NCBI GenBank assembly: GCA_965197725.1
Contig: CBDANQ010000060.1
Coordinates: 96,001 to 160,000 of the forward strand
DNA from: Longimicrobiales bacterium
Lineage (GTDB): Bacteria > Gemmatimonadota > Gemmatimonadetes > Longimicrobiales > Gaopeijiaceae
Reading direction: 5' to 3'
DNA: 64,000 bases
Shown here: positions 52,533 to 64,000 of the stretch, piece after piece
Position numbering within the stretch: position 1 is the first letter of the stretch
How the letters are laid out: each line of letters opens with the position of its first letter
Notes under the pieces: generated by a model
What the model was told of the DNA's origin: nothing
The model's database searches: none
What the model saw: the letters and a program-made list of their open reading frames with translations, nothing else
Program-made: the position numbers and the translations under genes

Positions 52533-52550
52533 TCCCTAGGCCGGAGGAGC

Positions 52551-52718
52551 GTCGAGGTCGTGCAGGCGTTTCGACGCTTGGCGCGGTCGGGCACGGTCTC
52601 GGACGCGAGGGCGACCGGGGCAGTCGAGCTACTCGACGCCCTGCCCGTCGAAAGACGCCCCGCTGGGATTCTCGTGCCGCGCGTGTGGACGCTGCGCGAC
52701 AACCTGAGCGCTTACGAC
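52551..52718 (+). pseudogene. Internal fragment of a VapC/PIN toxin
   Basis: VEVVQAFRRL...LDALPVER....LVPRVWTLRDNLSAYD. Confidence 0.75.
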
Positions 52719-52819
52719 GGACCCAGCTTGGAGTGAATGTCTTATGGTACGCGAGGGGGTCGTGTACGTGACGGACAGCGAGAATCCTGGGGTTCGAGCT
52801 CTCGAAGGAGCCGTTTAGC

Positions 52820-53880
52820 ATGCGTATCGCTCGTCCCTGGACTGTCGGCGGTCTCATCGTCCTGGGGGCTGACGCGGGCCCAGACGTACACGCTCAGCAT
52901 GCCGCCAGCGTGACCGTCGAGGAGACGGCTGGTATCCGGCGCACCCGGTTCCCGACCCGTGCACTGGCGAGCTCGTCTACGGTCCCGATACATCCGGACA
53001 GGCCCGACCTCGCCGGGGCCTGTCCGTCACCGAAGACGCGAAGGCCGTGCAAGTCGGCAGGCTACGATTCAGCAAGCGTGGCTCCCCGCTCCTTCTCTCG
53101 GCCGACTACCGAGGAGAGCTCATCGTAGTGGGTCGGGACGGCATCGTGGTCATCGACGGGGCAGGGGCCCGGCACGACGCGTCGGAGATCGAGTGGCAAT
53201 CAGTGGAGCTCCTCAAGCGGGGTCCGCTGACGGTGCACCTGCGCTACGAAGGAACACTGGAGTTCAGCCGGGGAGGCCGTGCCGATGTAGTGATCGACGT
53301 GGAAATACCGAACAGCAAATCGTGGGTGAAGATCTCCACGGTCGTGCGCGATCTGGACCGGAGCGTGCGGGAAGTCGCCATCGAGACGCCGCTGAAGCTG
53401 GGCGAATATCCGTGGACGTGGGACTTCGGCACACCGAACGGTACGTGTGGCGCGTTCAGGGACTCGTCCGGCTCCGTCGTGCTGACACAGACGATCGCCC
53501 AAGACCGCGACGGGTCCTGGATGGTCCACGCCGGCCCGGCCGGGGCAGAGCAACCCTTCGAGAAGAGCGCGCCCAACCGGCCCGAGATCGTGCGCGGCTG
53601 GACCCACTTCCAGAACCAGTCGCAGGCTGTGGCGTTCGCGATCGAGGGGCTCGGCGACGTCCCCGGCAGGTTCACGGCAACCCTGAATGGCGAGGGCCAG
53701 ACCTCGTTCGCCTTCGCGCCCGTGGAGTCAGTCGCCGAGCACTCACTCACCGTCTACGAGCACTTCGTCGTGACGCCGGTGCCTATCGGAGCCGCCACGA
53801 GTCCTGCTTCCATCTTGAGCCCGCTCCGCGCGCGGGTGGAGCTCCGTCCGAACCTACCTACCCGTGACCACTCGGATGAT
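52820..53880 (+). pseudogene. Exported hypothetical protein broken into two frames
   Basis: Signal-bearing ORF at 52820 (VEETAGIRR..FP) followed by a coding-like ORF from about 53047; 3' end uncertain. Confidence 0.5.
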
Positions 53881-54017
53881 ACCGCCCGTGTAACCCGTAC
53901 CGTATTGGATCGCGGCGTCTCTCAGGTCGAGGAACTCGATCCGTTCTCCCAGCGAGTCCTTTTCGTGTCGAGGGGCACGCCCGGGCGCTTCGGGGTGGGG
54001 CGGGAGCGTCCATGGGA

Positions 54018-56366
54018 TCACATCCGGAGGAGCCGGTTCACCTTGATCACGAACCCCCGGTTCTCCAGCTTGGAGAATCGGTCGAATACGTCCGTGTCAC
54101 GCTCTTCCGTGTACACGATGAAGATCTCGCTTCCGGGGGCATACTCCCAACGCAGTCGAAAGTTGGCGCTGAAGGAATCGGTACCGGCACTGTACTGAAC
54201 CAGTCCGCTCAGGAAGGTCCGGGGCGAGAAGCTGTAGCTGACGCGCGTCGAAGCCACGTGCTGGGTGAAGTCGCCCTGGGGCAGATCGACCCAGTTGAAC
54301 GAGACATTGGGCTCGACGGAGAGTTGGGGCAGGACTTCGATTCTGGCCCTCTCAAACCCTACCGACGTGCGGTCGCCACCGAAGAAGCTGCCCCTTTGCA
54401 ACGACAGATTTCCCGCAAATGGGCGCTGGAGACCGAAGCTGTAGCTGAACTGGACGTTTCGAAAGCTGTATCGGCCCACCGGGATCGTCACGCCGGGTGC
54501 GATCGGAAACAGTTCGCTCAGGTTCTCGTAGCTGTCGGTGAAGTCCACGCTGAACTCATCGCTGGTCTCGAACTCGATCTGGAAATTGCCCTGTCGCTCC
54601 CGGGTCTCGACGAACCCCGCCTCGGCGTTCTCCAGGTAATTGATTCGCGCCTCGAGCGTCACCTGCCGGATGGACTCGATGGACGCCGGTCGCGGGCTGT
54701 ACCGCCCCGAGAGGAAGCTTTGTCGGATTCCTTTCCGCTGCACGAACCCGAGCTCCGGGTTGAAGTCTTCGCCAACCAGGAGGTGATCGATCTGGAGTCC
54801 CCACGCGTCCCCCGAGTAGCTGAATCGGCTACGGTAGCTCTCGTCTGTCCCGGTGAGCCCCTCGGTATCGGTCTTGGCGTAGTAGCCGAGGAGGTCGACG
54901 TTGTCCAAGACCGAGAATGTGGCGTCGATTCCATACGCCTGGTTGGATCCCGGCGCCAGGGTGGACTCCGACCGGCTCTCGAACAGCACCCCGATGCTGC
55001 TCCGCTGAAGGATGTCCCGGCGCAGCCGTAACACCGTGAAGTTGGTCGACTCGGCTCCTGCGCTCTGGAGGTCGTCCGTCCGGATGCTCAGGGCCCCGAC
55101 ATCGAAGGGACCCACCTTCCCGGTCACTCGACCACCGCCGAGGATGGGCACCGGCTCACCGCTCTGGAGACCGATTCTGCGGCTGAAGAACAGCGTGGGC
55201 GCGCTCACGCCGCCGCGGCCGAAGCCCGCGCCTACACCGGCCGTCGCGAAACCGAAGATGCCCCGTCCCTCGAGAAAGAACTCCCTCCTTTCGGGAAAGA
55301 AGAGACTGAACCGCGTGAGGTTCACCTGCTGTTCGTCAGCCTCGACCTGGGCGAAGTCGGTGTTGTAGGTGAAGTCGGCTGTCAGGTTGTCGGTGATCCC
55401 GATCTTGAGGTCCAATCCCGCGTCGGCGCTCAGGTCGTTCCGGGATTCGGGATCGGTGGTCAGGTCGGTCGCGAGCCCCGAAATGCCATACGGCTTGAGC
55501 TCGATCACCCTGCTCGACGGTGGTGCCTCGAGCCCGACCAGCGTAGCGTACCTCGAGACGCGCATCGAGAGTGCCGGCCCCACTGGAGCTGCCGACCTGG
55601 GAATCAGCGTGAGATGGCTCCATTCGTTCCTCCGACGGATGGCGCGCCTCATCTGGACGCCCCAGACCTGCTCGGAGCCCCCTCGGTACCGGAGCGACTT
55701 GAAGGGGATCTGCATCTCGACTGTCCAACCGCCGTCGAAGCGACCCGTTCTTACGTCCCAGACCGGGTTCCAGTCGCTGTTCGCGTTACCCTCGTTCGTG
55801 ATCGCGAAGTCGGAGAGGGCGCCGAGCGGGTTCGTGTAGAACATCACCCCGTTTCGGCGATCGTAGAACGTGTCGAACATGACCCCGAACGTGTCGTTCT
55901 GCCGGAGCTGACCGTTGTCTCGCCGCAGCTCGTTTGCCATCCATTCGCTCTCCGGCGCGGAGTCCCACATGCGCGCGGACACATAGATGTCCGTGTTGTC
56001 GAAGGTGAGCCAAACCTCCGTCCGCTCGGTAGCGGCTGCACCCTCATCGGGTACGCTCTGTATGAAGCCCGAGAAAGAGCGGGTCACCTCGTAGAAGGTC
56101 TCGTCCAGTCTGCCGTCGAGCTGGATCGGTCGCCTCAACCGGACCGCCCGGACGGTGGCGTCGCCGCGGTCGTCGCGGGTGATGACTTCGGGCGGCGTGG
56201 GCGGAAGGGGACCTTCGGCCCGGACCCGGTCGCTCCCCTTGGCACCTCCTGCCTGGGCAGCGAGCCCTTGGGGGCGCTCGAGCATTGCGGACACAGTGAC
56301 CAGCGCCACGACGGTAATCCAGACCTTCGAGGGTCCAAGGCGAGCCATCATAGCCATTCTCTGCAT
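54018..56366 (-). CDS. DUF5916 protein, paralogue 3
   Basis: YNTDFAQVEAD, NLTRFSLFFPERREFFLEG, FFSRRIGL, FNPELGF; colinear with paralogue 1. Confidence 0.88.
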   Translation of the reverse strand: MQRMAMMARLGPSKVWITVVALVTVSAMLERPQGLAAQAGGAKGSDRVRAEGPLPPTPPEVITRDDRGDATVRAVRLRRPIQLDGRLDETFYEVTRSFSGFIQSVPDEGAAATERTEVWLTFDNTDIYVSARMWDSAPESEWMANELRRDNGQLRQNDTFGVMFDTFYDRRNGVMFYTNPLGALSDFAITNEGNANSDWNPVWDVRTGRFDGGWTVEMQIPFKSLRYRGGSEQVWGVQMRRAIRRRNEWSHLTLIPRSAAPVGPALSMRVSRYATLVGLEAPPSSRVIELKPYGISGLATDLTTDPESRNDLSADAGLDLKIGITDNLTADFTYNTDFAQVEADEQQVNLTRFSLFFPERREFFLEGRGIFGFATAGVGAGFGRGGVSAPTLFFSRRIGLQSGEPVPILGGGRVTGKVGPFDVGALSIRTDDLQSAGAESTNFTVLRLRRDILQRSSIGVLFESRSESTLAPGSNQAYGIDATFSVLDNVDLLGYYAKTDTEGLTGTDESYRSRFSYSGDAWGLQIDHLLVGEDFNPELGFVQRKGIRQSFLSGRYSPRPASIESIRQVTLEARINYLENAEAGFVETRERQGNFQIEFETSDEFSVDFTDSYENLSELFPIAPGVTIPVGRYSFRNVQFSYSFGLQRPFAGNLSLQRGSFFGGDRTSVGFERARIEVLPQLSVEPNVSFNWVDLPQGDFTQHVASTRVSYSFSPRTFLSGLVQYSAGTDSFSANFRLRWEYAPGSEIFIVYTEERDTDVFDRFSKLENRGFVIKVNRLLRM

Positions 56367-56759
56367 CCTGATCGGCCCCCAGGTGTGCAGAAGAGTCAGA
56401 GGGTGCTACGTGAACTCGACACTGTTCAGAACGGTTTCGTTGTGGATCCCCAGCGCTTGACCGTCACCCGCTCGGCCTCACATGCGGAATAGTAGCTGAT
56501 CGTCACGAAAAGGCCGTCCGCTCGAGGTCGCACATCTGGAAGTCGAATGCACCCGAGTCGTTGAACTCGCGGGTGAATTGATCCCGTTCGGCCACTGTGG
56601 CGCGAATCTCTTCCGGGAATCCCTCGTGGGCCCGGATCCCGAACTAAATGGCGTTTCCTTTGACGACGGACTACCACGCACAGCTTGGTGGGAGAGCCGA
56701 GCGGCCTCGGAAAGGCGCCGCGCCCTCCGGAGGACCTCGATCCTTGAGCCGAAACGCCT

Positions 56760-56864
56760 GTCCTGATGCGGGAGCATGATGTCCGCCGCATCTGCACGCG
56801 CGACACGGATTTCCATCGCTTCCCGTTTGTGGAGCCCATCGACGCGTTCGTCTCAGACCGGTAG
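56760..56864 (+). pseudogene. C-terminal fragment of a VapC/PIN toxin
   Basis: VLMREHDVRRICTRDTDFHRFPFVEPID followed shortly by a stop. Confidence 0.7.
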
Positions 56865-57017
56865 GCCTCCGCCCGACATCTGATCGAGCCGTCCCATCCA
56901 GCCATCCCCTCATGGAGTGGCCGGCCGCATCGTTGGTTCAGCCGTATCTCGCTCGAGCAGGATGTGATATGGGCTTGGCGATTCGCGATGCGGGGCTTTA
57001 TCCAAAGGAGGTAAGAA

Positions 57018-57215
57018 ATGCGCAAATTGACGGGGCAAGAGTTGTCGGCGGTTCGCGGTGGTAGGCCCGGCCTGGGCACGGCTTGCGGATCCGCTGCTGG
57101 CGCGGCGTGGTCGGCGTGGCGTTGGTTTGGGAAGGTGCCGATGTGGGGCTCCTCCATCGTCGCCTATTCGGTCCTGATCGCGGGGACGACGTGCCTACTC
57201 GACGCGTTCTTCTAG
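57018..57215 (+). CDS. Double-glycine-leader peptide precursor A (bacteriocin/RiPP-like), 65 aa
   Basis: AAGGAGG RBS; leader MRKLTGQELSAVRGG; hydrophobic 50-aa core with two Cys and GxxxG motifs. Confidence 0.8.
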   Translation: MRKLTGQELSAVRGGRPGLGTACGSAAGAAWSAWRWFGKVPMWGSSIVAYSVLIAGTTCLLDAFF

Positions 57216-57250
57216 GCCTTTCTGACACTCTTCGATACAAGGAGTTGGTT

Positions 57251-57442
57251 ATGACGCGTATGACAACAGAGCAGCTGGTATCGGTGCAAGGCGGCGGCTT
57301 CTTCGATGGCTTCCTCTGCGGTGCGGGCATCGTCGCGTTGATCGCCGTCGCGACGGGCTCGGGTGGAGCGGCGCTTGGCCCCGCTTCACTCTTCTTCGCC
57401 CAGGCTGGCGTGCTAGGAGCCTGCCTAAGCGCTTTTAGGTAG
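57251..57442 (+). CDS. Double-glycine-leader peptide precursor B (bacteriocin/RiPP-like), 63 aa
   Basis: AAGGAG RBS; leader MTRMTTEQLVSVQGG; hydrophobic 48-aa core with two Cys and GxxxG motifs. Confidence 0.8.
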   Translation: MTRMTTEQLVSVQGGGFFDGFLCGAGIVALIAVATGSGGAALGPASLFFAQAGVLGACLSAFR

Positions 57443-57503
57443 GGCACGCGTAGTCCAAGACCGGAGGAGCCATGGTCCTGAGAGCGTTCGGACCGACCAG
57501 CCA

Positions 57504-57529
57504 CCACGGCGGGGCATGCCCCGCCGTGG
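57504..57529. repeat. Perfect 26-bp palindrome downstream of the peptide genes
   Basis: CCACGGCGGGGCA-TGCCCCGCCGTGG; no U-tract. Confidence 0.8.
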
Positions 57530-58291
57530 CATCCTCCGCTGTGGTGATCTTCCGCGCCAAATGGACCATGGAGGCTCGGAGATGAAGGTGTCCCCGGCTC
57601 AGTTGAAGGTGGTGACTCCGAGGCTTTCGTGATTAACCTGCCATCTTCATTTCGGCAACCGGCTCGCGGTCATCGAGGTGAGCTTTGAGCATCCAGAGTT
57701 GGTCGAAGCCGACGATGCGTCGGTAGTTCTTCTCGGTCTCGACGAAGGAGGCAGCGGCCCATCTCAGTGCCATCGCTCCGTTCTTCCAGTTCGTCACCCT
57801 ATAGGTCTTCTGCCTCACGCCTGCGTGGGTGCTGTCGATCAGGTTCGTGGTGCCGAGGCACTTCCTCAGCCGAGGCGGTAGCCCAAGCCGGTTGATTGTG
57901 AACATCTCACCCAGCCCCTCCCTCAGGCTCGCTGCGGCCGACGGCTGATCTCGTTCAAGCCACCGCGCGAGCTGCTCGAGTTTCTGCACGCCGTCCCTCG
58001 CATCGAGCTTCCATGCTGCGAGGATCGCGGCCTTCACCTGCGGGTGCTGATCCTTCGGTAGGTGAGCGAGCACGTTTCTGAGCTTGTGATTTCGGCATCT
58101 CTGGACCGAGTGGCCCGCGCCGAACACCTGAACAATCGCCTTCCGTAACGCCTTCGAGCCATCGATCACGAACAGGCGTCGACGCTCGGGGTCCAGACCC
58201 CGCTCGACCAGATCCTGCAGCAGGGCCGTCGTCACTTCGGTGTTCTCACTCGCTCCCTGCCGCATCCCCAGCACGTGCTTCTTGCCGTCCG

Positions 58292-59748
58292 GATGGTGTC
58301 CCGCTGACAGTTGAAGGTGGTGGCGCCGGAGAGTCTCTTGGTTAGCCTGTCTTTCTCATTTCGGCAACCGGTTCATGGTCGTCGAGGTGGGCCCTGAGCA
58401 TCCAGAGCTGGTCGTAGCCGATGATCCTCCGGTAGCTCTTCTCGGTTTCCACGAACGAGGCCGCAGCCCAGCGCAAGGCCATCGCTCCGTTCTTCCAGTT
58501 AGTCACCCTGCGGGTCTTCCGTCTTACGCCCGAGTGGGTGCTGTCGATCAGGTTGGTCGAGCCCAGGCACTTCCTCAGCCGCGGTGGGAGGCCGAGCCGG
58601 TTTATGGTGAACATCTCGCTGAGGCCTTCGCGCAGGCTGGCTGCGGCCGAGGGGTGGTCGCGCTCGAGCCATCGGGCGAGCTGCTCGAGCTTCTGCTCGC
58701 CCTGCTTCGCGTCCAGCTTCATCGCCGCCCGGAACGCCGCCTTCACCTGAGGATGCTGATCCTTCGGCAGATGACCCAGCACGTTGCGGAGCTTGTGGTT
58801 GCGGCAGCGCTGGATGGGGTGACGTTGGCCGAACACCTTCTCGATCGCCTTCCTGAGCGCTTTCGAGCCATCGATCACGAACAGCCGCCGCCTGCCCGGG
58901 TCCAGGCCGCGCTCGACCAGATCCTCTAGGAGCGCGCTGGTCACCTCGGCGTTCTCACTCGCTCCTTCCCTCACGCCCAGCACGTGCTTCTTTCCGTCTG
59001 AGTCCACGCCTACCGCAGCAAGCACGTGGTGCGAGCCCATCTGGATCCCGTCCAGGTAGATCACCAGGAGGTCCCACGCATCCAGCCGGCGCTCCATCAG
59101 CTCCTTCAGCACGCGCTCCGAGGCCTCGACCGTCTCACGGCTCACCGCCGACTTGCTCACCCCGACCGTGTCGGCCATCTCACCGATCACACGGCCGTAC
59201 TTTCGCGTGCTCACCCCCGCCATCAGGACCTCGAGCATCCGATCCGCCACGGCGCCCGGTCTCCGCATCGCTGCGTACGCCGGCACCTCGACCTCGCCAC
59301 CCTCCCCGGCGCCCCGGCGCCTGAGCCGTGGCCGCTCCACACGCACCTTCCGGTCCGACAGGTAAACCACACCACCCTGCCGGCCATACCACACCGTGTC
59401 GTCTTCCGCTCGTGACCGACCTGCCTGCTTCACGCCTGCCACACCCTCTGCGCTCATCTCCAGCACCGCTTCGATCGTCGCTTGTCCCATCACCTGGATG
59501 ACTTCGTCGATCGCGACCTCCGTCTGCTCCACGAGCTCAAGCATCGGAAGCAGAAACTGCCCCTCCCGCTTCAGGAACTCCCTGATCGCGCGCTTGTCCG
59601 CCCGATCCCTTACCTCGTACGTTCTCTTCATCGTGGTGGCTCCGTGTTGGGGTTTTTGCCTACCCGAGCCTATCGGCCCGGGACCCCCGGAGCCACCACT
59701 TTTCTTTCTCCCCTATCAGGGACCTTCAACTACGGTTGGGACAGCTTC
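58292..59748 (-). mobile_element. IS256-A complete copy nested in IS256-B
   Basis: 8-bp duplication GCCGTCCG at 58284-58291 and 59749-59756. Confidence 0.95.
58342..59631 (-). CDS. IS256 family transposase (isoform A)
   Basis: Same as 11009-12298 except VMGR to VMGQ. Confidence 0.95.
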   Translation of the reverse strand: MKRTYEVRDRADKRAIREFLKREGQFLLPMLELVEQTEVAIDEVIQVMGQATIEAVLEMSAEGVAGVKQAGRSRAEDDTVWYGRQGGVVYLSDRKVRVERPRLRRRGAGEGGEVEVPAYAAMRRPGAVADRMLEVLMAGVSTRKYGRVIGEMADTVGVSKSAVSRETVEASERVLKELMERRLDAWDLLVIYLDGIQMGSHHVLAAVGVDSDGKKHVLGVREGASENAEVTSALLEDLVERGLDPGRRRLFVIDGSKALRKAIEKVFGQRHPIQRCRNHKLRNVLGHLPKDQHPQVKAAFRAAMKLDAKQGEQKLEQLARWLERDHPSAAASLREGLSEMFTINRLGLPPRLRKCLGSTNLIDSTHSGVRRKTRRVTNWKNGAMALRWAAASFVETEKSYRRIIGYDQLWMLRAHLDDHEPVAEMRKTG

Positions 59749-60374
59749 GCCGTCCGTGTCCACGCCCACAGCCGCAAGTACGTGGTGCGCACTGAGTTGG
59801 ATACCGTCCAGGTAGATCACCAACAGATCCCATGCGTCCAGCCGCCGCTCCATCAGCTCCTTCAGCACGCGCTCCGACGCTTCGATCGTCTCGCGGCTCA
59901 CCGACGACTTGCTCACCCCCACCGTGTCGGCCATCTCGCCGATCACCTGGCCGTATTTCCGGGTGCTCACACCTGCCATCAGGATCTCCAACATTCGGTC
60001 CGCCATGGCGCCCGGCCTGCGCATCGCCTCGTACGCTGGCACCTCGACCTCGCCGCCCTGGCCGCCAGTCCGCTCACGCAGCCGAGGCCGCTGGATACGG
60101 ACCTTTCGGTCCGACAGGTAGACCTGACCGCCCTGGCGGCCGTACCAGACCGTCGCCCCCTCCTCGCGTGCCTTGCCCGATTGCTTCGGGCCCGCCACAC
60201 CTTCGGCGCTCATCTCGAGTACCGCCTCGATCGTCGCTCGGCCCATCACCTGGACGACTTCGTCGATCGCGAGCTCCGTGTGCTCTACGAGCTCGACCAT
60301 CGGCAGCAGGAACTGGCCTTCTCGCTTCACGAACTCAGCCATCGCACGCCTGTCCGTGTCACTCGCTACTTCGT

Positions 60375-61123
60375 ATGGGCTCGCACCACGTGCTTGCTGC
60401 GGTAGGCGTGGACTCAGACGGAAAGAAGCACGTGCTGGGCGTGAGGGAAGGAGCGAGTGAGAACGCCGAGGTGACCAGCGCGCTCCTAGAGGATCTGGTC
60501 GAGCGCGGCCTGGACCCGGGCAGGCGGCGGCTGTTCGTGATCGATGGCTCGAAAGCGCTCAGGAAGGCGATCGAGAAGGTGTTCGGCCAACGTCACCCCA
60601 TCCAGCGCTGCCGCAACCACAAGCTCCGCAACGTGCTGGGTCATCTGCCGAAGGATCAGCATCCTCAGGTGAAGGCGGCGTTCCGGGCGGCGATGAAGCT
60701 GGACGCGAAGCAGGGCGAGCAGAAGCTCGAGCAGCTCGCCCGATGGCTCGAGCGCGACCACCCCTCGGCCGCAGCCAGCCTGCGCGAAGGCCTCAGCGAG
60801 ATGTTCACCATAAACCGGCTCGGCCTCCCACCGCGGCTGAGGAAGTGCCTGGGCTCGACCAACCTGATCGACAGCACCCACTCGGGCGTAAGACGGAAGA
60901 CCCGCAGGGTGACTAACTGGAAGAACGGAGCGATGGCCTTGCGCTGGGCTGCGGCCTCGTTCGTGGAAACCGAGAAGAGCTACCGGAGGATCATCGGCTA
61001 CGACCAGCTCTGGATGCTCAGGGCCCACCTCGACGACCATGAACCGGTTGCCGAAATGAGAAAGACAGGCTAACCAAGAGACTCTCCGGCGCCACCACCT
61101 TCAACTGTCAGCGGGACACCATC
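60375..61123 (+). mobile_element. 3' half of IS256-A
   Basis: Matches 11600-12348, starting at MGSHHVL and ending at the right IR. Confidence 0.92.
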
Positions 61124-63044: not shown

Positions 63045-64000
63045 TGTCAACGGCCATCGAAAGCTGCACAGGTCTGGCCATCGAAAATTGCACACTTGGC
63101 GGAGGTGACGAGCCTCTAGTTCGTCGTTTTCTCCTTTGCTCTTGCTCTCTTTCTCTTCGGGGGTGAAGGGCTCGACTCCGCAGGAGGCGAGTGGAGGATC
63201 TTGGAGAGGTCGGTGTGCTTGCGCATCCGGTAGCTGCTGCCGCGGATGTTGACGATGTGGCAGTGATGCAGCAGGCGATCGATGAGCGCAGCGGCCATGA
63301 CCTCGTCGCCCAAGATCTGGCCCCACTCCTCGAAGCCTTTATTGGAGGTCAGCACAGTGGATGCGCGCTCATAGCGCCGGTTGATGAGTTGGAAGAAGAG
63401 CATTGCGCCGGTCTGGCTGACCGGCAGGTAGCCGATCTCGTCGATGACCAGGAGCGAAGGATAGGTGAGGATCTTGAGGCGGCGTCCCAGCTGGCCGGTG
63501 GTCTTGGCTTCTTCGAGCGAGGTGATGAGGTCGGCCAGAGCGCCGTAGTAGACTCTGCGCCCGCTCTGAGCCGCGGCAATGGCGAGGCTGATCGCGAGAT
63601 GCGTCTTGCCGACGCCCGGAGGGCCGAGGAAGATCACGTTCTCCTTACGCTCCAAGAAGCCGAGCTCGTGGAGCGAGTCGATCTGCTCGCGCTTGATCGA
63701 GGGCTGGAAGCTGAAGTCGAAGTCGTCGAGGGTCTTGATGCCCGGTAGCCGGCTCGAGCGCATCGCAGCCTGAAGGCGGCGGTTGTTGCGCAGCGTGATC
63801 TGGGCACCGAGGAGTTGCTCGATGGCCTCCGAGGCCGTCACGCCTCCGCCATCGACCCCGGTGAGGACGTCGTCGATGGCCTCCAGCGCACCGGGCATCT
63901 TGAGATCGGCGAGCTGGGCTCGGATCCGGTCACGGCGAGAGCGAGCGGCAGCCTTCATCGGTCCCCTCCCGCGATCTGGGCATAGGCCGTGAGGGGACGT
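63045..64000 (-). mobile_element. IS21-family element, right part
   Basis: Terminus TGTCAAC with two internal GGCCATCGAAA..TGCACA repeats (63052-63070, 63076-63094); carries istB and the end of istA. Confidence 0.9.
63116..63958 (-). CDS. istB: IS21 helper ATPase IstB
   Basis: FDFSFQP, GPPGVGKTHLA, IDEIGY, TSN, DRLLHH, GSSYR. Confidence 0.95.
   Translation of the reverse strand: MKAAARSRRDRIRAQLADLKMPGALEAIDDVLTGVDGGGVTASEAIEQLLGAQITLRNNRRLQAAMRSSRLPGIKTLDDFDFSFQPSIKREQIDSLHELGFLERKENVIFLGPPGVGKTHLAISLAIAAAQSGRRVYYGALADLITSLEEAKTTGQLGRRLKILTYPSLLVIDEIGYLPVSQTGAMLFFQLINRRYERASTVLTSNKGFEEWGQILGDEVMAAALIDRLLHHCHIVNIRGSSYRMRKHTDLSKILHSPPAESSPSPPKRKRARAKEKTTN

Follow-up and report, generated by a model that had tools for sequence, protein, structure and literature searches.

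Two groups of peptide bacteriocins come closest to the locus that we describe here. Bacteroidetocins (proposed class IIf) are encoded in regions of four genes: a five-helix membrane protein, a peptide with a double-glycine (GG) leader of 15–16 aa, a thiol oxidoreductase, and a C39-ABC transporter (PCAT). According to the available text of their description (PMC6671954), the four genes suffice for toxin production in E. coli; activity drops when either the membrane protein or the oxidoreductase is deleted, and neither of the two confers immunity. Bacteroidetocins A and B have 12–13 hydrophobic residues of 42 and net charges of +6 and +2, and some of the 19 bacteroidetocin-type peptides listed in that text are only 17–30% similar to bacteroidetocin A (these 19 may already include a hydrophobic type). 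The same text leaves open how bacteroidetocins pass the outer membrane, and it notes that producers kill themselves and may release the toxin by lysis. In the available part of another paper, resistance to bacteroidetocin A maps to bamA (PMC8546649).

The other group is the subgroup of two-peptide (class IIb) bacteriocins that includes gallocin A, brochocin-C, and thermophilin 13 as well as ABP-118. The available text on gallocin A describes long peptides with few charges, a Cys near both ends, a hairpin, and a thioredoxin helper, and it reports that gallocin A permeabilizes vesicles (PMC10100652). Class II microcin systems are described as including a membrane fusion protein (available parts of PMC9746304 and PMC12219008). 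Yip1 has been tied to circular and leaderless bacteriocins, with SpoIIM defining the circular ones (available parts of PMC8659200 and PMC11580447). For marine Gemmatimonadota, the available text of PMC11316326 mentions Nif11-type bacteriocin and microcin genes and not the operon considered here; the comparison literature further includes PMC10352776, also available in part.

Here we analyze an operon with two GG precursor genes, A and B, which a preliminary description had picked out in a 64,000-nucleotide stretch of DNA (the window) as a candidate new two-peptide system. Most likely, the operon combines the action of a class IIb bacteriocin of the gallocin type with an export module of the bacteroidetocin type. 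We consider it fairly probable that the intact operon makes a two-peptide, disulfide-closed, membrane-active bacteriocin, which the PCAT would process and deliver to the periplasm and from which a pair of ABC proteins would protect the producer.

Two precursor genes with a shared core architecture

Genes A and B are real genes. The coordinates (Table 1), the homologues, and the dN/dS values bear out the initial proposal of two small genes, each with its own strong ribosome-binding site (RBS) and a 15-aa GG leader. Both cores also have the architecture that had been described: G5, C8, and G9 lie at equal positions (G5-x-x-C8-G9), GxxxG occurs twice in A and three times in B, and the second Cys is near the C terminus, with 6 residues after it in A and 5 in B. 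The cores are 70–83% hydrophobic and near neutral (GRAVY 0.70 and net charge +2 for A; GRAVY 1.37 and net charge 0 for B). The calculated average masses of the oxidized cores are 5207 Da for A and 4519 Da for B.

Table 1. Features of the A/B locus, in window coordinates.
Feature	Position	Strand	Basis or remark
RBS of gene A, AGGAGGT	57006..57012	+	Sequence; kept in G002, L034, L046
Gene A precursor, 65 aa	57018..57215	+	Sequence and ORF list
Gene A leader, 15 aa, double-glycine	57018-57062	+	50-aa core with Cys8 and Cys44
RBS of gene B, AAGGAG	57239..57244	+	Sequence
Gene B precursor, 63 aa	57251..57442	+	Sequence
Gene B leader, 15 aa, double-glycine	57251-57295	+	48-aa core with Cys8 and Cys43
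Permease 5' stub, 37 codons, RBS 57463-57469	57472..57585	+	Remainder on contig C57 from 37386
11-bp GC-rich hairpin in permease gene start	57504..57529	+	Fold z -2.8 here
8-bp target-site duplication	57576..57583	.	Equals right flank of IS256 copy at C57:35929-37385
IS256 element, 3' part, interrupts operon; transposase fragment 57633-58274	57584..58291	-	PF00872

As had been pointed out, gene B appears in the ORF list only within a longer, misleading ORF (119 aa with a TTG start). Neither this ORF nor a reverse-strand ORF was accepted as the true gene B, because homologues retain the 63-aa frame and its RBS. When we searched the 3.0-Mb genome for the leader pattern with an RBS, there were two matches, genes A and B, and 40 triplet-shuffled copies of the window gave none, although this is a lenient control because the pattern was composed with the A and B peptides already in view. 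A tblastn search of the whole genome found no further copies of A or B.

B has 18 homologues at 68–100% identity (B itself counted), and A has 5 at 75–91% identity. The names on close homologues support a Gemmatimonadota host, as had been suspected. The GG and Cys residues are kept: in the B-type alignment, GG and the second Cys are found in 17/17 sequences and the first Cys in 16/17, and in the A-type alignment both Cys are invariant (19/19 sequences). Across four homologous loci (6 pairs per gene), dN/dS is 0.21–0.33 for A and 0.12–0.54 for B, which gives independent support for A and B as genes and indicates purifying selection on both.

Neither precursor reaches the cut-off of a curated family. 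PF10439 scores are 13.8 bits for A and 16.2 bits for B (cut-off 27.1), and the TIGR03949 score is 9.3 (cut-off 21.5). Leader A has Leu(-12), Glu(-8), Leu(-7), and Val(-4); this fits the consensus given in the available text of PMC6363468, and we counted it for the bacteriocin reading. Leader B has Met, Gln, Leu, and Val at these positions. A structure model of B (mean pLDDT 68.7, moderate confidence) is a two-helix hairpin with helices 6–35 and 44–62. A wide structure search aligned it with nothing but generic hairpins (Z 6–7, below Z 8), and it had no significant Foldseek match. A profile of 31 precursors from the wider family had no match among solved structures at E below 0.1.

Two RNA-seq runs of marine sediment, from two studies, contain contigs of 779 and 710 bases that span A, B, and the start of a second B and derive from a relative that is about 89% alike. 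These contigs carry no strand information and lack a silent-region control, and we take them only as a hint of expression in a relative. Runs X18 and X19 give no cover at 57448–57583; because their contigs end within the second B copy, this gap says nothing about expression of the next gene. Runs X17 and X20 may be DNA rather than RNA.

Across 56350–57600, no sigma-70 promoter or intrinsic terminator was detected. The hairpin at the start of the permease gene (Table 1) is kept in three relatives, with fold z of -3.0 to -4.9. It has no T-run and was not called as a terminator; it is a candidate signal that may lower downstream expression or stabilize the precursor mRNA.

A short reading-frame remnant lies upstream of gene A (56749–56860) and is also present in G002, a genome of the same genus; many unrelated contigs match it, and depth is high. 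It had no Pfam match and resembles the C terminus of a PIN-domain (VapC-type) protein. A 4.2-kb block (52543–56779) between a hydrolase gene and the precursors is present here and not in G002. The block includes a 782-aa DUF5916 gene (54018–56366, minus strand).

A six-gene operon in relatives

A third gene, which the preliminary description had missed, begins at 57472 with its own RBS and is cut by an IS256 element, so that the operon is broken. Its intact form is seen in relatives: G002, L034 (a metagenome contig), and L046 (a locus in a metagenome-assembled genome, MAG). In all three, A, B, a 549-aa protein, an ABC ATPase, and the PCAT are encoded in one run. A 226-aa Yip1-like gene follows the PCAT in G002 and L046, and L034 ends inside the PCAT. 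The operon order is thus peptide A, peptide B, 549-aa ABC permease, ABC ATPase, PCAT, and Yip1-like membrane protein. The permease begins 29 bases 3' of gene B in the window and in the same place in L034 and G002, and it is whole in L034, L046, and G002. L034 is clean as far as its contig reaches; L046 has full-length matches to all four downstream genes and carries a second B-type precursor. Three other genomes (G272, G197, and G125) have the same gene set with divergent peptides. A permease search and, independently of it, a B-profile search, each of 401 genomes of the phylum, both find G272 and G197, at adjacent positions.

A search of the assembly for a C39-ABC transporter, as had been advised, found one C39 domain, in a 705-aa PCAT on contig C57. 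This PCAT belongs to the A/B operon, given the contiguity in G002, L034, and L046 and the match of IS256 flanks (see below). It retains Gln11, Cys17, His94, and Asp110 as well as intact Walker and nucleotide-binding motifs.

The 549-aa permease has no Pfam match and about 11 predicted helices, and its atlas similarity to ABC permease clusters is 0.95–0.97. The best structural matches of its model (pLDDT 60) are type V ABC membrane domains: CcmB is the top match (Z 12.0, rmsd 4.8, 201 aligned), followed by ABCG proteins (Z ~11.5) and, over the whole length, a mycobacterial efflux pump (Z 9.3). These Z values are in the uncertain range for helical bundles, and the top rows agree. Foldseek gave no match at E 0.001. 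As modeled, the 549-aa protein shows a type V ABC fold. The permease slot is filled by DUF5687 or ABC2_membrane_2 proteins in other loci. By position and analogy, the permease and ATPase are a candidate self-protection exporter.

The 226-aa protein is Yip1-like by atlas similarity (0.93) and by PF04893, which matches in three relatives (one above the cut-off). By hydropathy, 4/6 scored Yip1-like proteins have five helices; those of this genome (G000) and G002 have four.

We noticed two other arrangements of transport genes. A convergent ABC system comes right after the operon (L025:16379-19317 in G002; C57:43379-46350 in G000), and its 709-aa permease is fused to a CAAX-protease (Rce1-like) domain. 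CAAX proteases of the Rce1-like type are linked to bacteriocin immunity. In L050 (12744-17973), a single four-Cys precursor is followed by five consecutive permease-like genes (three of them DUF5687) and then by the ATPase.

Insertion sequences and decay of the operon in this genome

The IS256 copy in the window begins at 57584; on C57, another copy of this element has its end immediately upstream of the operon genes. The matching 8-bp target duplication (Table 1) supports an IS256 insertion. For comparison, the genome has 28 full IS256-like copies, with matching flanks in 23. Among unpaired IS ends, 3 of 270 pairs match; two of these are within one contig, and the window/C57 pair is the only match between contigs. 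In a run that is probably from the source sample (X1), a contig shows no difference from 56000 to 30 bases inside IS256, an overhang one short of our bridging criterion. The split of the operon across two contigs may be either a rearrangement between IS copies or an assembler mis-join.

Besides being cut after 37 codons, the permease gene is frameshifted by one base and has lost about 730 bases. The last residues of the ATPase are lost to a second IS (transposase DUF772/DDE_Tnp_1), and the Yip1-like last gene has a 90-base in-frame deletion. The precursor genes and the PCAT remain open frames, and the split leaves A/B and the PCAT without a common transcript in this assembly. Given the IS256 split and four more lesions, the operon is probably inactive in this genome; we regard an active operon here as improbable. 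The lesions in G002 are different: the ATPase stops early, B has lost its second Cys, and the PCAT contains a short duplication. Together, these three and the five in the present genome suggest that the system is being lost more than once.

Permease homologues (P0026 and P0044) also occur on a contig of 61,940 bases. In P0026, the match is confined to the first 122 permease residues and gives way to unrelated sequence, which suggests another independent permease break. Downstream in the window, 57584–61100 is a nested pile of IS256 elements (the first type, at 57584..58291, is interrupted by a second IS256 type, and an inverted partial copy follows), and an IS21 istB is at 63116–63958.

The transporter belongs to a clade without an adjacent adaptor

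We scanned one genome per species with patterns from five PCATs and obtained 43 loci. In a tree of 52 PCATs, 28 rows fall on one side of a branch with SH-aLRT 100; this is a quick tree with sampling biased by the query patterns, and it is without L063 (segment too short) and L034. The 28 rows come from Gemmatimonadota, KSB1, Calditrichota, Ignavibacteriota, and Bacteroidota. In the open-access literature, we found nothing on this operon type in these phyla.

A search for an HlyD adaptor had also been suggested, and none adjoins the PCAT. Across the tree, HlyD is beside the PCAT at 0/28 clade loci versus 6/18 other PCAT loci, as counted with five queries of limited reach and with some loci stopping at contig ends. 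TIGR01843 had no match above its cut-off in this genome. The clade consists of 22 loci that were assigned to it first and six that joined on the tree, also without HlyD. Within the 22, 19 have a Yip1-like gene (the three without it stop at or close to the end of a contig), 12 have a CxxC redoxin with a membrane anchor, and 6 have MauE. No redoxin or MauE relative was found in this genome (89% complete), nor a redoxin in the G000, G002, L034, and L046 loci, and a plasmid search with the redoxin had no match.

In the reading that we prefer, a two-peptide bacteriocin, the PCAT would cut each leader after GG and, with no adaptor gene next to its own, would take the cores no further than across the inner membrane. 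Cys8 would pair with Cys43/44 in the periplasm, closing each core as a helical hairpin, with the help of the redoxin and MauE where they are present and of general machinery in the redoxin-less lineage. The Yip1-like five-helix protein may assist production, as the five-helix protein does for bacteroidetocins. The peptides would exit by lysis or vesicles, and A and B would jointly permeabilize the membranes of competitors. Meanwhile, the permease and ATPase would protect the producer by pulling the peptides from its own membrane.

The ABC pair might instead take part in secretion. Together with the PCAT, the Yip1-like protein, and the redoxin, the type V ABC exporter could form an adaptor-free two-step route, found in at least five diderm phyla. 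The PCAT would deposit pairs of hydrophobic peptides in the inner membrane's outer face, oxidation would take place in the periplasm, and the ABC pair would then lift the peptides out for transfer to the outer membrane or vesicles. We consider this route doubtful.

The lack of an adaptor for one-step secretion would also suit peptides that act on their producer, by staying in the envelope, triggering lysis or vesicle release, or signaling, which we think quite unlikely. The self-killing of bacteroidetocin producers and their possible release of toxin by lysis are in line with this idea, as are the Neisseria GG peptides that, in the available text of PMC11798529, cause autolysis and not competitor killing, and the AraC or LuxR regulators upstream in L050, L052, and L065. 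However, the loci have no conserved sensor kinase. Typical peptide pheromones are short, unlike the long and hydrophobic A and B cores. Furthermore, the operon system is rare and patchy: a strong Yip1 match (below 1e-30) occurs in 4/401 genomes of the phylum and A is present in 2/5 genomes of the genus, a spread that is usual for competition systems. (The phylum search gave 29 Yip1 matches, the majority of them weak and to ordinary Yip1 genes.) In a Bacteroidales-centered sample, 17/401 genomes have a Yip1 match, and no module was found in G143.

Cargo across the family

Calling precursors in the 22 loci from the leader motif plus an RBS gave 31, of which 29 contain two or more Cys; the two that do not are the G002 variant and an ORF at a distance from the operon. 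The cores are mostly 38–50 aa, hydrophobic, and near neutral. Nine of the 31 have weak PF10439 matches, and single members weakly match MccV and E492 models. Among the 24 loci first grouped as other PCAT loci, 11/13 precursors are Cys-rich (six of those loci were later placed in the clade), so Cys-rich GG peptides are common beside other PCATs and Cys content alone is not specific.

Two conserved Cys, neighboring redoxin and MauE genes, and purifying selection on A and B could also fit peptides that are not toxins but small proteins of the envelope, which would bind metal or have a redox role once the redoxin and MauE have matured them. Yet the cores diverge beyond recognition between genera, Cys excepted, and have few or no His; they use a bacteriocin-type leader and exporter; and no modifying oxidase was found among the 50 neighboring proteins scanned. 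A role of this kind seems very unlikely.

At least two different precursors are present in 13/13 Gemmatimonadota loci that hold the precursor region, representing about nine separate lineages. One of them usually starts Gly-Phe-Trp/Phe, with Cys at 8. L050, L063, L072, and L081, from other phyla, showed a single precursor each, so pairing is not universal outside Gemmatimonadota.

These counts bear on whether A and B are instead separate single-peptide toxins that each bind a surface protein of related bacteria, a cocktail and not a complex. Bacteroidetocins, with resistance to bacteroidetocin A in bamA (PMC8546649, in its available part), would be the precedent, and their export gene set is the same; moreover, single-precursor loci exist and precursors duplicate freely (L046 and L047). 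Against this, the hydrophobic, near-neutral A and B cores are unlike bacteroidetocins A and B, and in those 13 loci a B-type precursor is never without a different partner. We judge separate toxins to be unlikely.

In L084 (a Mucilaginibacter MAG), a PCAT and an HlyD match have six GG precursors nearby; each of these contains eight Cys, and they are a different peptide family. L089 (5920-12561; Flammeovirga pectinis plasmid NZ_CP034564.1) has a Yip1-like, redoxin, and PCAT trio followed by a 51-aa gene, a GLPGLI protein, a LanC-family protein, and a glycosyltransferase, which suggests that the PCAT module may also serve modified peptides.

Comparison with known systems

Like the bacteroidetocins, A and B have 15-aa GG leaders and come from a Gram-negative producer with a PCAT and a membrane protein of the five-helix type; their cores, of 50 and 48 aa with two Cys each, are also in line with the bacteroidetocin pattern of two or more Cys in about 35–50 aa. 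No adaptor gene is listed for bacteroidetocin regions, and many loci of the present family have a thiol oxidoreductase. There are several differences. The producer is outside Bacteroidota, each locus has two different precursors, and this lineage has no redoxin. Bacteroidetocin cores are basic with four Cys, whereas these are hydrophobic and near neutral with two. The operon has an extra ABC permease and ATPase, while bacteroidetocin regions are without an immunity gene. This likeness was judged from the published description and from a stand-in locus that fits it (L129).

L129 has the bacteroidetocin gene order and a peptide of 15+45 aa with four Cys and a charge of +4. Its membrane protein matches a mixed Yip1 profile at E 1.7e-18 and a Gemmatimonadota-only profile at E 0.0012, a weak match that ordinary Yip1 proteins equal or exceed. 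In L129, and also in L070, which has two hydrophobic two-Cys peptides, the genes run membrane protein, peptide, redoxin, PCAT. Basic and hydrophobic cargo types thus appear to share one machine. In L129 (1378-3599), L126, and L064, the cores start Lys-Phe-Trp-Gly and have four Cys; these are possibly new members of the bacteroidetocin family.

The class IIb-like reading of the preliminary description is supported by the two adjacent, different GG precursors and their long, weakly charged, two-Cys cores. In these respects the peptides resemble the gallocin A subgroup, as they do in having a Cys near each end, a helical hairpin (as predicted for B), and, at many loci, a helper of the thioredoxin type (core lengths are 50 and 48 aa here versus 42 and 60 aa). 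But the producer is a diderm, the leader is 15 aa versus 23 aa, no small immunity peptide gene follows the precursors, the operon has a Yip1-like protein and an ABC pair, and there is no sequence match above the cut-off. Because the operon fails a defining feature of each, we file it under neither gallocin-type class IIb bacteriocins nor bacteroidetocins. The initial suggestion of a new family has to be lowered, since the export set is that of bacteroidetocin regions (PMC6671954) and the peptide design is that of the gallocin A subgroup (PMC10100652), as far as the available texts of both describe them.

Class II microcins likewise come from Gram-negative hosts and combine a PCAT with small GG precursors. 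They differ in having a membrane fusion protein and a small immunity protein; no adaptor was found at the 28 clade PCATs.

The preliminary description had left room for a modified peptide (RiPP). However, no RiPP-modifying enzyme (lanthipeptide, YcaO, radical SAM, or glycocin) was found in the six-gene operon or among 50 neighboring proteins from 16 loci. It is also conceivable, though extremely improbable, that the large membrane protein, ATPase, and Yip1 protein join the cores head to tail (calculated masses 5191 Da for A and 4503 Da for B) into circular bacteriocins. Circular bacteriocin clusters commonly have Yip1 and ABC components (available parts of PMC8659200 and PMC11580447), and in those of PMC8659200 a Yip1 protein, an ABC ATPase, and a large membrane protein are beside hydrophobic precursors, as here. 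But the SpoIIM/DUF95 protein of those clusters was found neither in this genome nor among the 50 neighboring proteins scanned, the tail beyond the last Cys ranges in length from 0 to 10 residues across the family, and the combination of GG leaders and a C39 transporter speaks for linear export.

Significance

For this genome, the main point is decay. For the family, the bacteroidetocin-type export module that was described for Bacteroidota is extended to Gemmatimonadota, KSB1, Calditrichota, and Ignavibacteriota, and it is linked to a cargo design known from the two-peptide bacteriocins of Gram-positive bacteria. Some 30 precursors with scores under the Pfam and NCBIfam cut-offs become synthesizable candidate antibacterials. 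Because the four bacteroidetocin genes work in E. coli, the intact six-gene operon of a relative is directly testable. If the adaptor-free route were true, this would be an undescribed two-peptide, disulfide-hairpin bacteriocin family from Gram-negative producers, and the route would give a handle on how bacteroidetocin-type peptides exit the cell.
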